The notes under the pieces: generated by a model | Database searches by the model: none | Seen by the model: the letters and a program-made list of their open reading frames with translations, nothing else | Told to the model about the DNA's origin: nothing | In this document: piece after piece, positions 6,430-30,939 of the stretch | Layout: the number at the start of each line of letters is the position of its first letter | Numbering within the stretch: the stretch's first letter is position 1 | Program-made: the position numbers and the translations under genes | NCBI RefSeq assembly: GCF_008000775.2 | Contig: NZ_CP042905.2 | Location: forward strand, 2,880,001-2,912,000 | Length of the DNA: 32,000 nt | Reading direction: 5' to 3' | DNA from: Promethearchaeum syntrophicum | GTDB lineage: Archaea; Asgardarchaeota; Lokiarchaeia; Sigyniarchaeales; Promethearchaeaceae

Positions 6430-7425
6430 ATGAGGAAACAGATAATGAAAGTACAATATAAAAAACTCGGTTGGTATCGAATTAAACTGACTCGAAAAAT
6501 ACGGAATCTTGAAGGAAAAGAATTAATTGATGCATTACAATCAGCTATTGAAGACATCCATAAAAAAGGATATGATAAATTTGGAGTGTTTAAGCATTTT
6601 GTTACCCAGATCGAACAAGAAATTCAAGAATTAAAATTTCGGCCCAAAGCCAAACCTCGGGAACATGATCCGTTTCTGATTAAACGATCAGGTGATGGAC
6701 GAATTGTTCTGTTTGGACTTTCTAATGTGGGAAAAAGCACTTTAATGAATGCAATCACGAATACCAATGTAAAAACGGGAAATTATCTCCATACTACCAA
6801 AACTGCATTAGGCGGTACTTGTGAATATAATCAAGTGAAAATACAAATTGTGGATGTACCTGGATTTGTAGATTATCGGGATGATTGGATGATTAGCAAG
6901 CAAATTCTCCGAGTAGCACGAACTTGCGATGCAATTTTGATGGTGATTGATTTATCCCAAAATGTTTCTAAACAATATCAGTTTCTTTTGAATCAATTGG
7001 AAAAAGCAAATTTAATGATTGATGGAGAAACTATGTATAAATTAGGGATTATTGCTTCCAAAGGGGATCTTCCAAAATCAAAAGACCAATTCATTAAACT
7101 GGAGCAAGAAAGTGAGTACCCGATACTCCCTATTTCAATTATAAATGAAGAGTCCTTAGAAAAAGCCAAGAAATTTCTATTTGACATGCTAGATGTAATC
7201 CGGATTTTTACAAAATCACCTAATAAAAAACCTGATTTAGAACACCCGATCATATGTGACTATGATACAACAGTTGAATATATTTCAAGTAAAATTCATA
7301 AGGATTTTCTAACTAGGTTTCATCATGCAAAAGTTTGGGGCAATTCAGTTGATTTTGATGGCCAACATGTTGGAAAGGATCATGTACTCTCTGATCTGGA
7401 TGTGGTTGAATTATTTAAAACGTAG
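6430..7425 (+). CDS. DRG/Rbg-type Obg-like GTPase with C-terminal TGS domain (compact variant)
   Basis: The pre-G1 and G1 region is PFLIKRSGDGRIVLFGLSNVGKSTLMNAIT. G3 is DVPGF and G4 is the variant SKGD. The C-terminal block IRIFTKSPNKKPDLEHPIICDYDTTVEYISSKIHKDFLTRFHHAKVWGNSVDFDGQHVGKDHVLSDLDVVELF matches the DRG TGS domain. Confidence 0.85.
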   Translation: MRKQIMKVQYKKLGWYRIKLTRKIRNLEGKELIDALQSAIEDIHKKGYDKFGVFKHFVTQIEQEIQELKFRPKAKPREHDPFLIKRSGDGRIVLFGLSNVGKSTLMNAITNTNVKTGNYLHTTKTALGGTCEYNQVKIQIVDVPGFVDYRDDWMISKQILRVARTCDAILMVIDLSQNVSKQYQFLLNQLEKANLMIDGETMYKLGIIASKGDLPKSKDQFIKLEQESEYPILPISIINEESLEKAKKFLFDMLDVIRIFTKSPNKKPDLEHPIICDYDTTVEYISSKIHKDFLTRFHHAKVWGNSVDFDGQHVGKDHVLSDLDVVELFKT

Positions 7426-21609: not shown

Positions 21610-22410
21610 TTATTTCGGTAATTGATCTGCAGATATTTTAACTGGTTCATACATTAATAGCGCATCAGATGAAATATCAATCTCATCAACATAGAAAACT
21701 TTCCCTTGAATTTCAGAATTTTCACCAATGTGGACATTTCTGCCTTGAATTTCACCTAATACTTTAATATTATTTATGGAAACTTTCTCTTTTACTGCGA
21801 TATCGCCCATGACTAAGGATCTTTTCGAAAATGGAAGCGTTACGTCATCAGATATCTCAATTATCAAATTCTCTCCAACAATGTTACCCGAGATTTTGCC
21901 ACGCCCTAAAATTTTTATTGTTCCATGTGAAGATACATCACCTTTAACTTTGGTAGAACCTGCAAATAATGCACCTTTTACTGCACGTAGATGATCTTTG
22001 CATTTAAAAGCACCTTCAATATGAATCGAACCGTTGATATTAACACTATCCTTAATGCTCGTCGCACCTTCAATATGAACGTCTTGTTCGCATTTCAACT
22101 TTCCCTTGCATGTAAAAGCACCTTCGCATTTGAAATCACCGTGCAGTACTAAATTACCTTTGGCTCTCAAGAATCCTTCCGTGTGAAGACTATCACATTC
22201 AAAATTTCCACCAATATTACCGAAACCACTGATTTTAATGTCTTGTAGTAATTTACCTGCGGGAATTTTTGCGAAACCATCAAATTGCATAACTCGGGGT
22301 TCAAAATCTGCACTAAATTCTTCATTACTCATAATGAAATAATCTATGTTTTCCAACCTTATTAATGATACTAAAATTTCCAGAGTTTGAGAATATTGAT
22401 AATTTGTCAT
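21610..22410 (-). CDS. Bactofilin-like (polymer-forming beta-helix) protein with an N-terminal extension
   Basis: The 266-aa ORF has a beta-helical repeat region at residues ~60-240 with 18-residue periodicity (VHIEGA at 111 and IHIEGA at 129). An exact 16-nt DNA repeat, gcaccttcaatatgaa, occurs at 22010-22025 and 22064-22079, 54 bp apart. G-x-V/I-x-G-type strands occur throughout. Confidence 0.75.
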   Translation of the reverse strand: MTNYQYSQTLEILVSLIRLENIDYFIMSNEEFSADFEPRVMQFDGFAKIPAGKLLQDIKISGFGNIGGNFECDSLHTEGFLRAKGNLVLHGDFKCEGAFTCKGKLKCEQDVHIEGATSIKDSVNINGSIHIEGAFKCKDHLRAVKGALFAGSTKVKGDVSSHGTIKILGRGKISGNIVGENLIIEISDDVTLPFSKRSLVMGDIAVKEKVSINNIKVLGEIQGRNVHIGENSEIQGKVFYVDEIDISSDALLMYEPVKISADQLPK

Positions 22411-27901: not shown

Positions 27902-28807
27902 TTATTTTTTCCTTGTGTCTTTTAATATTAATTCCATAGAGCGAAATAAGGTATGAATTAATTCAGGCTGAATAGAACTGAAGGTAGCTTTTATATTCAG
28001 ATCTTTCTCTAAAATTTGTTTCACTTTGAGAATACTATCTTTATCTGGGTCTGAAAGTAAGTCGATCTTATGGCAAAAAGCATAAATTTTTGAATTGGGA
28101 GGGGAAATTACTTCTTTTGTCGAAATTATTTTTTTAAGATTATCTATGACTTTTTCCGACTGTTCTTTCCAATTGATTACATCAAAAACATAAATTATGA
28201 TATCAGACCCTTCAAAAGCTCTTAATTGTTCCTCATTTCCATCCGATACATATGAATCGAACTCTTGACCACTGGAATCAACAATTCCGATACTTGCATT
28301 AAACCAGGAATATATAAAATGGACTAAACCTCTAGTCGGCTCAGGAGATGAATCGCCCAACAATTCTTTTGGATCTTCTTTATCAAAAATTGATTTCTTT
28401 ATGCTAGTTTTACCAGCAGAAGGAAATCCAATAAATAATAATTTCTTAGCTTCACTTTCACTAAAAAATTGGCGCGCAAAAACTTCAAATTTTGCATATC
28501 TCTCTTGTTTGTTATTCTGGTAAAAATTTTCTATATTATTCAGAATAAAATCGATAAATTCTTTTTTCTGTGGAACTTCGTTTGGTGAAAGAATTAACGC
28601 AATAATTTCATTTGATTGATGTAAATCGATTTCTTGTGATAATATCAAAACAAGCTTATCTCCGTAATTATATTCTAAAATCTCATTCAATTTAGCTCCA
28701 GATTGCATGAAGAATTGTGTTATTTTATGTATTAACCCCCGTGAAATTTTAAACGATTTCGGATAAGAACTTTTTATTTCGCTTTTTATATCGAATTCTT
28801 CAGACAT
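27902..28807 (-). CDS. Rag/Gtr1-like small GTPase with an extra ~120-aa N-terminal alpha/beta domain
   Basis: G1 is GFPSAGKT (residues 127-134), G3 is DSSGQ (176-180), and G4 is HKID (246-249, the Rag-type HKxD). Blocks [42 protein letters not shown] and [16 protein letters not shown] parallel RagA/Gtr1 as I recall them. Confidence 0.8.
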   Translation of the reverse strand: [301 protein letters not shown]

Positions 28808-28860
28808 AGAATTTTCAAGTAATACTGCTCCTAATGGTATTTTTATCCCTCCATAATTTT

Positions 28861-30939
28861 CTAAACCAAATCCGCCATTATTTCTGATAAAATTTTCTTT
28901 CGTAAGAATTCAAGGAAACCTTTATCGATTTCGGCTATAGTTTTTAATGTTCTAGTTTGTTCTTCAAAAATGTTCTTCACTTTTTGACGATCATAGAAAA
29001 AAGGTATTAAGTTTTTTGTAAAAACTAAACAAAGTAAAGTATATGATTGTTGATGAGTTCTTTTCTGAATTTGAGAGGGATCATCGATAATCAAGGTATA
29101 TATAATAGATCTGAGCTTTTTATCACCAAACGGTAAAGGTCCAAACAATCCTTCGTGATATTGAATACCTTGCCCAAGAGCGATTGAATAAAGACTTCCA
29201 ATCATTAAAATATTTTTATTCCAAGCCATATCGTTTGTTTTTACGTTTTCTTTTTCTAGTATAACAGGACCTAGATTCTCATCAATTTTAAATGAAACAA
29301 AAAAGGTGTCTGCTAAATCCTCCTCAGAAATCACACTTTCAACGTAAGATGCAGTGGTTGCTTTTAATTCTTCTAAAGCATAACTGAGAATTATATGATT
29401 TAGTTGAGATTTTGGAGAATTAGATGATTTTTTTGCACTAATAACCAATAATTTCTCTTGGACATTTCTAGATTTAAAATCCATTTCATGGGATTGGGCA
29501 AGTTGAATAGCTTCAGTCAGGGTTTTTTCGGCATTTTCTTGTTCATCTTGAGATGAATAAAGTAATCCTCGAATTATAAGGGCATTAATATAATTTGGGA
29601 TCAATTTTTTCTCTTTAGCTAATTCCATTGCTTCAGATATAAAAGATATTGCATCGTTATAATTCTGAAAATCAGTTGAATTATGTAGATAATTTACCAA
29701 AAAAGTTTGTGCTAAGAGCATTTTACACGTAAATTGAAATATAATATGATTTATTTTCACAGAATGCCATAGTGCCTCATTTAAAGACATTTCTGCTTCA
29801 TTAAAATCCAGTTTATTCAAACATATCCGACCCCGTTGAATTAGCACTTGTGCATGCCCAATTTCTGAATTTCTTTCTCGTGATAAACGATCCGCTTGCT
29901 TTAAGTATTTATAAGCTTCATCAGTTTGACCCATCCCTTCGTGTATTTCTGTAAGCAAAGTTAAAATTTCTATCTCTGCATCGCTTGCCCCTGTTTTATT
30001 AACTAATTCTAGTGCTTCTCTTATAGTTTTTTTGGCTTTTTGAAATTGACCCTGTACTAACCAATAATTTGCTAGAGTTTGTAAAGCTAATATTTTTCCT
30101 TGAGGATCATAAAAATCTTCATATATTTCAAAAGCGGAGTTCAACATCTGATATGCTTTTTTTAATTCACCCAGATCAATCCAATAATTTGCATAACTTA
30201 CACTCATGGATGCAATATTTGCTACATAATTCAATTTTTTCGCTAATTCTAACCCTTCTTCTAAATGTTTGAAACCTGTGGTATATTCACCCATAAGCCT
30301 CAGTGCATCAGATATGTTACTTTGAAAAGAACATACTCCCCGATAAAAATTCAATTTTTTCGCTTTTTCAATACTTAATCTTGAAAATTTGACAGATTTT
30401 TCCATTTCTCCTCTTAATAAATAAATTAAAGCACTATTTCCAAGAGCCATTGTATACATTATGGTTTCCTTATTCTTGGTAAGTCTCATTGTATTCTTGT
30501 AACGTTCCAAACTTTTAACAAATTCACCCTTTGCAAAATAAAGGCTTCCAAGACAGTTGTTAGCTTGAGCTTCTTTTTCAGGTAAAGATAATTTCTTAAA
30601 AATCTCTATTGCTTGCGTACAATTCGAAATTCCTTCACCTAAATTGCTTGAATAAATATTACAAATTCCTTTTCCAAGCATTGCCTCAGCGATTTCTCTT
30701 TGAAAATTATGGACACTGGCTTTTTTCAAAACTTCCTCATAAAGTTTAAGAGATTCATTGATTTTAGTTTGTGAAAAAAGTGAATATGCAAGAGAAATTT
30801 TGATTTGAAGATCTTCTCGATTACTGTTATCCTTTGCTAGAAGCTCACGTAAAGTGATTTCACTTTGTTGTGGATTGCTGACTACTAATTCCCTTGCTTT
30901 TTCCAATTCAATTGAGAGTTTCTTTTGTTTTTCTGGCAA
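28861..30939 (-). CDS. TPR-repeat protein (~500 aa of TPRs) with a C-terminal ~148-aa longin-like alpha/beta domain
   Basis: The 692-aa ORF starts at TTG. An in-frame TAA lies 8 codons upstream, and no ATG is available. It has many 34-40-aa A/G/Y-patterned helical repeats, for example ALGNSALIYLLRGEMEKSVKFSRLSIEKAKKLN and VCSFQSNISDALRLMGEYTTGFKHLEEGLELAKKLN. The C-terminal domain begins TFFVSFKIDENLGPVILEKEN. Confidence 0.85.
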   Translation of the reverse strand: MPEKQKKLSIELEKARELVVSNPQQSEITLRELLAKDNSNREDLQIKISLAYSLFSQTKINESLKLYEEVLKKASVHNFQREIAEAMLGKGICNIYSSNLGEGISNCTQAIEIFKKLSLPEKEAQANNCLGSLYFAKGEFVKSLERYKNTMRLTKNKETIMYTMALGNSALIYLLRGEMEKSVKFSRLSIEKAKKLNFYRGVCSFQSNISDALRLMGEYTTGFKHLEEGLELAKKLNYVANIASMSVSYANYWIDLGELKKAYQMLNSAFEIYEDFYDPQGKILALQTLANYWLVQGQFQKAKKTIREALELVNKTGASDAEIEILTLLTEIHEGMGQTDEAYKYLKQADRLSRERNSEIGHAQVLIQRGRICLNKLDFNEAEMSLNEALWHSVKINHIIFQFTCKMLLAQTFLVNYLHNSTDFQNYNDAISFISEAMELAKEKKLIPNYINALIIRGLLYSSQDEQENAEKTLTEAIQLAQSHEMDFKSRNVQEKLLVISAKKSSNSPKSQLNHIILSYALEELKATTASYVESVISEEDLADTFFVSFKIDENLGPVILEKENVKTNDMAWNKNILMIGSLYSIALGQGIQYHEGLFGPLPFGDKKLRSIIYTLIIDDPSQIQKRTHQQSYTLLCLVFTKNLIPFFYDRQKVKNIFEEQTRTLKTIAEIDKGFLEFLRKKILSEIMADLV

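Follow-up and report, generated by a model that had tools for sequence, protein, structure and literature searches.

A TPR-longin protein and a longin-fused Rag-like GTPase encoded by adjoining genes in Promethearchaeum syntrophicum MK-D1: a candidate regulator-GTPase module

Introduction

In a 32-kb stretch of the genome of Promethearchaeum syntrophicum MK-D1, a cultured Asgard archaeon, two adjoining genes encode a tetratricopeptide repeat (TPR) protein of 692 aa that ends in a longin-type domain, and a Rag-like GTPase annotated as 301 aa. This stretch, at its full length, is called the window here. The question raised by the locus is whether the first protein regulates the second. Our favored answer, to which we give a probability of about 40%, is a genus-specific bicistronic regulator-GTPase module in which the TPR-longin protein would serve as a GAP (GTPase-activating protein) through arginine R627, presented on a platform of two longin domains.

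Eukaryotes possess comparable systems. In NPRL2-NPRL3, FLCN-FNIP and SMCR8-C9orf72, two longin domains cup a GTPase and one of them supplies an arginine finger. A bacterial Ras-like GTPase, MglA, is encoded in an operon with its roadblock GAP, MglB, which is a standalone roadblock dimer.

Both protein types of the MK-D1 locus have counterparts in the literature on Asgard archaea. Tran et al. (2024) analyzed all small GTPases of MK-D1 and list the GTPase of this locus as WP_147664208.1-LG in a supplementary alignment (with G for GTPase, L for longin and R for roadblock). Fusions of Rag-like GTPases with longin domains, roadblock domains or both are described there, and AlphaFold2 (AF2) homodimers are given for those containing a longin. 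Longin-fused Rag-like GTPases with LG and LGR architectures are a known class (Tran et al., 2024; bioRxiv 10.1101/2020.10.19.343400). Liu et al. (Fig. 5c) likewise present longin-fused Rag GTPases, together with NPRL2-like longins fused to two-component signaling domains. Asgard longins with a GP motif and an arginine finger (‘FLCN/SMCR8-type’) are reported in a recent article (Traffic 2025; PMC12290439), which also asks whether their partners are Arf-related GTPases, Rag-like GTPases or both.

Results

The gene pair and the start of the GTPase gene

Both genes lie on the minus strand with the TPR gene at the 5′ side, and 53 bp separate its stop codon from the annotated ATG of the GTPase gene. 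The coordinates of the open reading frames (ORFs; Table 1) agree with this arrangement, which had been described in the original prediction, a reading of the sequence alone. All peptide blocks quoted in that prediction were found, and the coordinates of the sub-features were checked by translation. In the databases, the protein of 301 aa has a 100% identical entry in WP_147664208.1/QEE17313.1, and that of 692 aa corresponds to WP_147664209.1/QEE17314.1.

The annotated start of the GTPase gene is probably 11 codons short. The peptide IPLGAVLLENS is encoded in frame 5′ of the annotated ATG, and the N-termini of relatives read MPLGAV. An ATA is found where three relatives have an ATG, preceded at 7 nt by the sequence GGAGGG, and the same spacing is kept in the relatives. 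The annotated methionine is not conserved (it is a valine in locus L008), and in the AF2 model the additional 11 residues form the first strand of the longin sheet, with a predicted local distance difference test (pLDDT) score of about 89. This points to either non-canonical initiation at the ATA or a recent mutation of the start codon in MK-D1. Since the start moves upstream to the ATA, the true intergenic spacer would be 20 nt long. Apart from the ribosome-binding site it contains little, a T-run terminator is lacking, and the two genes are probably co-transcribed.

The GTPase belongs to the Rag/Gtr1 type and carries an N-terminal longin

The G domain of the MK-D1 protein is of the Rag/Gtr1 type, with a similarity that far exceeds chance. 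Residues 122-264 match Pfam Gtr1_RagA with 51.3 bits (E 1.3e-13, gathering score 22), while the Arf model scores 20.6 bits and stays under its cut-off of 22.3. A phmmer search of the PDB returned RagA, Gtr1, RagC, Gtr2 or RagD for all of the top 15 chains, with a marginal match to Der below. The AF2 model of the GTPase (mean pLDDT 85.6) gave a concordant result in Foldseek: the top 16 matches are all Rag/Gtr chains with a root mean square deviation (rmsd) of 2.1-4.2 Å (2.1-2.9 Å for RagA/Gtr1), the best RagA match being 6s6a_A (E 3.6e-11, rmsd 2.1 Å), and Rab8 and Rab1 rank behind them with an rmsd of more than 4 Å. Because Pfam, phmmer and Foldseek all place the domain with Rag/Gtr, an Arf or MglA assignment is ruled out, and the Rag/Gtr1 assignment proposed from the sequence is supported. 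The G4 box reads HKID and thus has the predicted HKxD in place of NKxD; it is invariant, like the P-loop and the DSSGQE motif, in 42 members of the GTPase family. The best Foldseek matches of the G domain include PDB 8yl2, a crystal structure of a Lokiarchaeal ‘RagA-like’ protein (LokiRagO). The entry (see also 8zla/9m28) was released in September 2025 under the name ‘Homo Tetrameric RagA-like small GTPase from Asgard Lokiarchaeota (LokiRagO)’; no paper on it turned up in the literature searched.

The domain preceding the G domain is predicted to be a longin and not a displaced roadblock. In the AF2 model of the extended protein its elements follow the order beta-beta-alpha-beta-beta-beta-alpha-alpha (strands 4-12 and 18-26, helix 34-46, strands 54-59, 62-70 and 77-84, helices 86-106 and 111-123). 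A roadblock fold, unlike a longin, would begin with a helix. This longin has no GP motif and no arginine in its beta4-beta5 loop. A Rag with an N-terminal roadblock was considered and rejected: the N-terminal domain models as a longin, and a phmmer alignment to the RagA roadblock is sub-threshold and represents noise.

The C-terminal end of the GTPase differs between relatives. Those at least 68% identical to the MK-D1 protein have 301-315 aa and end directly after the G domain. Homologs with at most 52% identity have 435-455 aa and bear a further domain of about 130 aa behind it. The longer group includes the positional ortholog of Lokiarchaeum ossiferum (447 aa), which is found in the same Dus/Lactamase_B neighborhood. 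A profile of the longer GTPases aligns without a break to both the G domain and the roadblock of Gtr1 and RagA (RagA residues 5-245, E 1.6e-19 to 7e-19). As this profile runs into the RagA/Gtr1 roadblock, the ancestral form of the family is a longin followed by a canonical Rag, i.e., longin, G domain and Rag-type roadblock (the ‘LGR’ of Tran et al.). By these alignments, the Promethearchaeum clade alone has lost the C-terminal roadblock dimerization domain, and the MK-D1 protein, in which that roadblock was not found, is a truncated derivative within the Rag lineage. The ‘domain-inverted’ Rag of the original prediction has to be abandoned for this reading. Its statement that nothing follows the G domain holds for the clade of MK-D1 and fails for the orthologs of at most 52% identity. 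The additional ~146 aa of the L. ossiferum ortholog were also compared with the C-terminal domain of the TPR protein, as in a Rosetta-stone fusion; no similarity was found, and the extension is the Rag-type roadblock.

The C-terminal domain of the TPR protein has longin order and GAP-type motifs

About 500 aa of the TPR protein consist of TPRs, as expected from the sequence, with Pfam matches to TPR_12 (94.7 bits, cut-off 30.1, eight stretches), TPR_MalT (86.7 bits, cut-off 45) and TPR_2 (58 bits), and also to TPR_1 and TPR_8. Orthologs and paralogs of 692-705 aa match over the full length down to 43% identity. The last ~150 residues are covered by no model of Pfam (even at E ≤ 10) or NCBIfam. 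An indexed search with this C-terminal domain alone gave two matches, and it was an exhaustive profile search of representative sequences that exposed a family, which counts 324 representative clusters when E ≤ 1e-3 is required and 134 when the limit is set to E ≤ 1e-10. Scans of genomes and metagenomes yielded only 8 and 13 loci, respectively, because their pattern step requires near-invariant stretches. Most family members are TPR proteins of ~700 aa with the domain at the C-terminus; others are REC-PAS-X, PAS-X-GAF, HTH-linked and standalone proteins.

The AF2 model of the domain reproduces the longin order that had been read by eye (strands 27-34 and 38-45, helix 52-70, strands 75-78, 91-100 and 112-121, helices 132-144 and 154-170 in model numbering). 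Both this domain and the N-terminal domain of the GTPase thus model as longins. Conservation was measured over 165 family representatives. The GP turn before beta2 is well conserved (G557 93%, P558 78%) and corresponds to the predicted longin-type GP at the site defined for FLCN, NPRL2, SMCR8 and C9orf72. This motif is described as closing the beta1-beta2 loop, spatially beside the arginine finger, and as specific to these four GAP longins, with FNIP2, NPRL3, TRAPP, adaptins and DENND proteins reported to lack it (PMC12290439). In the beta4-beta5 loop of our model, D620 (92%) and R627 (90%) are conserved, with R627 located between strands 91-100 and 112-121. The catalytic arginine fingers of GAP longins are FLCN R164, NPRL2 R78 and SMCR8 R147; in the human sequences, NPRL2 R78 and FLCN R164 occupy the corresponding segment, which directly precedes the fifth strand (strand assignment by eye). 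In the TPR protein, 69 residues separate GP from the arginine; the equivalent figures are 57 (NPRL2) and 78 (SMCR8).

The loop GQG-x5-GLFGPLP (residues 589-603), between alpha1 and beta3, is conserved at 81-99%, with 92-99% at G589, Q590, G591, G597, L598, G600, P601 and P603. It is the strongest conservation of the family, above the GP turn and the arginine, and is modeled at low confidence by AF2. The FLCN segment ‘REGPIFFGD’, at the matching place, is loosely similar to it.

A Foldseek search with the model of the C-terminal domain against 350,542 PDB chains gave nothing at E ≤ 1e-3. The top five matches all come from Rag-GAP complexes (E 0.018-0.13): the SEA complex chains 9h4q_T and 8adl_S, of which 8adl_S is confirmed as Npr2; 6ulg_N, the non-FLCN chain of an FLCN-FNIP2 complex and presumably FNIP2; and 9v0j_A and 9o5d_D, from GATOR1 entries containing NPRL2. 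Each match is weak, though the enrichment of Rag-GAP chains at the top is likely to be beyond chance, since generic longins (SNAREs, TRAPP, adaptins) are far commoner in the PDB and yet rank lower. We conclude from the modeled fold and the motifs that the domain is best classed as a longin of GAP-like type (GP and arginine), in line with the proposed resemblance to Nprl2/FLCN/SMCR8-type longins. Homology to the eukaryotic GAP longins is plausible. Comparison of the family by hhalign with the N-terminal longin of the GTPase and with the LGR roadblock was negative or non-significant.

Conservation of the gene pair

The TPR-longin gene adjoins the GTPase gene in all loci whose TPR C-terminal domain is at least 78% identical to that of MK-D1 (the window, L001/L002, L008, L010 and L021-L024). 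The gap before the GTPase gene in these Promethearchaeum-level loci is ~10-20 nt, and adjacency has outlasted a divergence of the proteins to 68-73% identity. Two further pairs (P0005/P0086 and P0010/P0090) have members recorded on equally long contigs. Lokiarchaeum, Harpocratesius and other lineages do not have the genes side by side, and the expected conservation of the neighborhood is thus confirmed for all Promethearchaeum-level relatives and not beyond them. The loss of the roadblock and the adjacency coincide in the same clade.

A general rule by which this longin family adjoins small GTPases is unsupported, as none of the 16 non-orthologous TPR-longin loci follows it; the neighbor is EF-1alpha in the L. 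ossiferum copy (L012), and a P-loop neighbor in L032 is weakly STAND-like. Loci L014 and L018 have a TPR-longin gene at 4-9 kb from the GTPase gene, beyond Dus, which encodes the most distant paralog (29-32% identity in the C-terminal domain). An origin of the pair by inversion from such an arrangement (TPR, Dus and a convergent GTPase) was considered and is weakened by this low identity of the TPR copies, L013 from the same metagenome-assembled genome (MAG) as L014 having 45%. Between Dus and the TPR-longin gene, both loci encode proteins of ~730 aa (L014 9093-11297, L018 12841-15006). The protein of L014 has a near-threshold match to the adaptor mu-homology family Adap_comp_sub (30.6 bits, cut-off 31.6) and a DUF11 match; that of L018 has weak precomputed matches to Adap_comp_sub and CLIPPER (PF01345).

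The one additional case that is suggestive comes from a Hermodarchaeota-labeled MAG (L005). It encodes a multi-pass membrane protein (2-823) whose C-terminus has a YGP turn and weakly matches the longin family (E 1e-6), and 90 bp downstream a Ras/Rab-like GTPase of 194 aa (913-1497; Pfam Ras, 155 bits). These genes may represent a longin-GTPase pair of a second type. In the gene island of locus L017 (1-11900), six genes for HKxD Rag-like GTPases (310-510 aa, in several architectures) alternate with response regulators, and PAS histidine kinases lie on the flanks. This fits the idea of Liu et al. that two-component signaling is coupled to the Rag-like switches of Asgard archaea. In the metagenome contig L023 (998-2254), the N-terminal ~140 residues of the longin-GTPase run in frame into a Mur-ligase C-terminal region, most likely as a result of chimeric assembly.

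Coordinates of the features and other genes of the window

The features of both genes are listed in Table 1. The window also encodes a bactofilin-domain protein (47.8 bits; 21610-22410, minus strand) and a DRG-like GTPase (MMR_HSR1 and TGS; 6430-7425, plus strand). Its remaining genes represent ordinary metabolism and transport, and no other longin, roadblock or Rag-like genes were found in it.

Table 1. Features of the TPR-longin and GTPase genes, in positions of the window.
Feature	Position	Strand	Basis and remarks
TPR-longin gene, 692 aa, WP_147664209.1/QEE17314.1	28861..30939	-	ORF, TTG start; orthologs and paralogs full-length
TPR solenoid, MalT-like, residues ~1-500	29440..30939	-	Pfam TPR_12, TPR_MalT, TPR_1/2/8
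C-terminal longin-type domain, residues 545-692 (predicted), uncurated family without Pfam model	28864..29307	-	AF2, Foldseek, family search
GP motif G557-P558, beta1-beta2 turn	29266..29271	-	Family conservation; coordinates checked by translation
GQG-x5-G-L-F-G-P-L-P signature, residues 589-603, alpha1 end through beta3	29131..29175	-	Near-invariant in family
R627, candidate arginine finger, beta4-beta5 loop	29059..29061	-	90% conserved; AF2 loop position
Probable true intergenic spacer, 20 nt	28841..28860	-	GGAGGG at 28852-28847; no T-run terminator; coordinates checked
Longin-Rag-like GTPase gene, WP_147664208.1, extended to probable ATA start at 28840-28838	27902..28840	-	Annotated 27902-28807
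GTPase N-terminal longin (predicted), extended residues 1-125	28466..28840	-	AF2; ‘LG’ label of Tran et al.
Rag/Gtr1-type G domain	27920..28450	-	Pfam Gtr1_RagA, Foldseek, invariant motifs
G-domain P-loop GFPSAGKT	28406-28429	-	Checked by translation
G-domain DSSGQE	28262-28279	-	Checked by translation
G-domain HKID (G4 box)	28061-28072	-	Checked by translation
G-domain SSIQPE, G5-like	~27962-27979	-	Sequence

Discussion

Proposed mechanism and alternative explanations

By analogy with NPRL2-NPRL3, FLCN-FNIP and SMCR8-C9orf72, the longin of the TPR protein and the longin of the GTPase itself would pair edge to edge and form a platform cupping the G domain. R627 would enter the nucleotide pocket and speed up GTP hydrolysis. 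As the GTPase longin has no arginine in the equivalent loop, a catalytic arginine would have to come in trans, and this longin may be left with a non-catalytic ‘holding’ role. The TPR solenoid would link the off-switch to some protein or ligand input, and the longin-longin heterodimer may stand in for the lost roadblock-mediated dimerization. Such a GAP module is favored by the conservation of GP and R627 at positions described for catalytic GAP longins, and by the gene arrangement (same strand, a gap of 20-53 nt, a conserved GGAGGG and no terminator). Further points in its favor are the Rag-type G domain, the longin topology of both accessory domains, the Rag-GAP complexes as source of the five top PDB matches, the retention of the pair in all Promethearchaeum-level relatives and the loss of the roadblock in that very clade.

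Several results weigh against it. The Foldseek matches of the C-terminal domain have weak E-values and a template modeling (TM) score of ~0.36, and the model itself has a mean pLDDT of 69.4 and a predicted TM score of 0.71, with one of five models confident. HMMER detected no profile link to NPR2, folliculin or SMCR8 (35 family members, E ≤ 1), so that the proposed homology to the NPR2 and folliculin Pfam families was not borne out at profile level, and the family profile finds no PDB chain. Nor did hhalign give a significant result against individual sequences of FLCN and NPRL2; the sole local match to FLCN, which pairs R627 with R164 and GLFGPLP with REGPIFF, is non-significant (pairwise E 0.01, probability 4%). 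A GTPase gene is immediately downstream in none of the 16 other TPR-longin loci (≤ 67% identity in the C-terminal domain), and a TPR-longin gene is immediately upstream in none of the seven roadblock-bearing ortholog or paralog loci (L. ossiferum, L016, L019, L020, L014, L018 and L017). Other short longin-GTPase paralogs, in L017, have no TPR neighbor. Within the genus, the neighborhood is wholly syntenic (Dus, Lactamase_B, DUF362), and the adjacency therefore counts as one evolutionary event. Finally, most characterized longin and roadblock regulators are reported to be guanine nucleotide exchange factors (GEFs) or platforms and not GAPs (PMC3747258).

The counts of unpaired loci, 16/16 and 7/7, are also what would be expected if the adjacency were a genus-specific accident of rearrangement, with the TPR-longin protein acting on other GTPases or pathways and the GTPase working through longin-mediated homodimers of the kind Tran et al. 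predict. We regard this as possible, if on the unlikely side. It agrees with the same-MAG TPR-longin paralogs that have no GTPase neighbor (L007 with L001, L009 with L010, which are among the 16 unpaired loci together with the L. ossiferum copy), with the unrelated housekeeping genes in the rest of the window, and with the report of Liu et al. that most genes of Asgard eukaryotic signature proteins are not in conserved or informative neighborhoods. An accident accounts less readily for a 20-nt spacer occupied by a ribosome-binding site only, which argues for co-transcription and probably translational coupling, for a gene order retained through the divergence of both proteins, or for a roadblock loss confined to the clade with the adjacency; moreover, both domain types are those that partner in eukaryotes. 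The operon evidence would serve equally well if the proteins cooperate and the TPR-longin protein functions as GEF, as membrane or complex platform, as effector or as scaffold, with the arginine and the GQG...GLFGPLP loop needed for binding or structure. Mon1-Ccz1, TRAPP, DENN and Ragulator are all described as GEFs or platforms (PMC3747258), Liu et al. proposed that an Asgard longin/DENN module acts as GEF, and conservation of the family peaks in this loop and not at the arginine. We nevertheless consider such a role unlikely in view of the GP motif, which is reported as specific to GAP-type longins and absent from TRAPP and DENND proteins, among others (PMC12290439), its company of a 90%-conserved arginine in the matching loop, and the presence of the catalytic subunits Npr2/NPRL2 among the top structural matches.

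The C-terminal domain might also be no GTPase regulator but a sensor of small molecules or signals, an alpha/beta sandwich of GAF, PAS or profilin-like type used as a module of Asgard signaling proteins. Its fusions to PAS, GAF, receiver and HTH domains, an invariant Gly/Pro-rich loop that could line a pocket, the lack of profile-level homology to any GAP longin, and GAF3 structures at Foldseek ranks 7 and 11 (TM 0.38-0.42) are compatible with this. The GAF matches are worse, with E-values of 0.26-1.1, probabilities of 0.13-0.33 and an rmsd of more than 10 Å, the order of secondary structure elements is that of a longin, GP and arginine are at GAP-longin positions, and Liu et al. independently class longins fused to two-component domains as NPRL2-like. 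A sensor is, in our estimation, very improbable, and the GAP module remains our preferred reading.

Comparison with described systems

The MK-D1 GTPase resembles the eukaryotic Rags (RagA-D, Gtr1/2) in a G domain closest to RagA/Gtr1 in sequence and structure, in the HKxD G4 box, and in the SSIQPE segment, which is similar to the Rag ‘TSIWDE’. Its orthologs retain the order of G domain and C-terminal roadblock, alignable to RagA 5-245, whereas the MK-D1 protein has no roadblock and an additional N-terminal longin. No gene for a heterodimeric partner adjoins (a second Rag-like gene was looked for in the 32 kb and not found), and a TOR, Ragulator or lysosome context is absent. With GATOR1 (NPRL2-NPRL3), FLCN-FNIP and C9orf72-SMCR8, the locus has in common the predicted longin fold, a GP before beta2, a conserved arginine between beta4 and beta5, and the availability of a second, non-catalytic longin, here on the GTPase itself. 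In contrast, the TPR protein has no DENN or NPRL2-type C-terminal domain, and its longin comes last, after a 500-aa TPR solenoid. The putative partner longin is covalently joined to the G domain that would be the substrate, and the GAP role is, in this case, a prediction. The MglA-MglB pair is similar as a prokaryotic operon of a small GTPase and a regulator of the roadblock/longin superfamily, but the MK-D1 G domain is Rag-type and not MglA-type, and its putative regulator is an arginine-bearing longin fused to TPRs.

For both components, the Asgard protein class is already in print, contrary to the original prediction, which knew of no described equivalent. The GTPase, with its N-terminal longin and its Rag-like, HKxD-bearing G domain, is the very protein listed as LG by Tran et al. 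The family of the C-terminal domain, with its REC-PAS, PAS/GAF, TPR and HTH fusions, GP and arginine, matches the descriptions of both the NPRL2-like longins of Liu et al. and the GP/arginine longins of the Traffic 2025 article, and may be the same family. The main texts of these three papers make no mention of TPR fusions, of a Rag-like GTPase neighbor or of roadblock loss, nor do the published accounts of the LG protein, as far as their main text goes, mention the upstream TPR-longin gene, the LGR orthologs, the loss in this clade or the short start. What is new is the operonic pairing, its confinement to Promethearchaeum, its coincidence with roadblock loss and the correction of the start codon.

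Significance

The value of the locus is tempered because both protein types have been described before and the pairing represents a single evolutionary event; if there is no coupling, the adjacency is a genus-level accident. Still, the locus offers a concrete, probably co-transcribed candidate answer to the partner question posed in the Traffic 2025 article, and it does so in the Asgard archaeon that was cultured first. The two proteins are soluble and manageable in size, and they come with a specific prediction, namely an R627-dependent GAP activity via a longin-longin interface. If the GAP coupling is true, the longin-GAP/Rag logic of mTORC1 signaling would predate eukaryogenesis. More specifically, and more doubtfully, the locus might be an operon-encoded minimal prototype of the GATOR1/FLCN-Rag switch, in which a TPR-scaffolded arginine-finger longin GAP would heterodimerize with a longin fused to its own Rag-like substrate and so replace the roadblock dimer. 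In that case, Rag-type GTPases would be physiological clients of the GP-motif longins of Asgard archaea, and the coupling of longin GAPs to Rags would be older than the eukaryotes.

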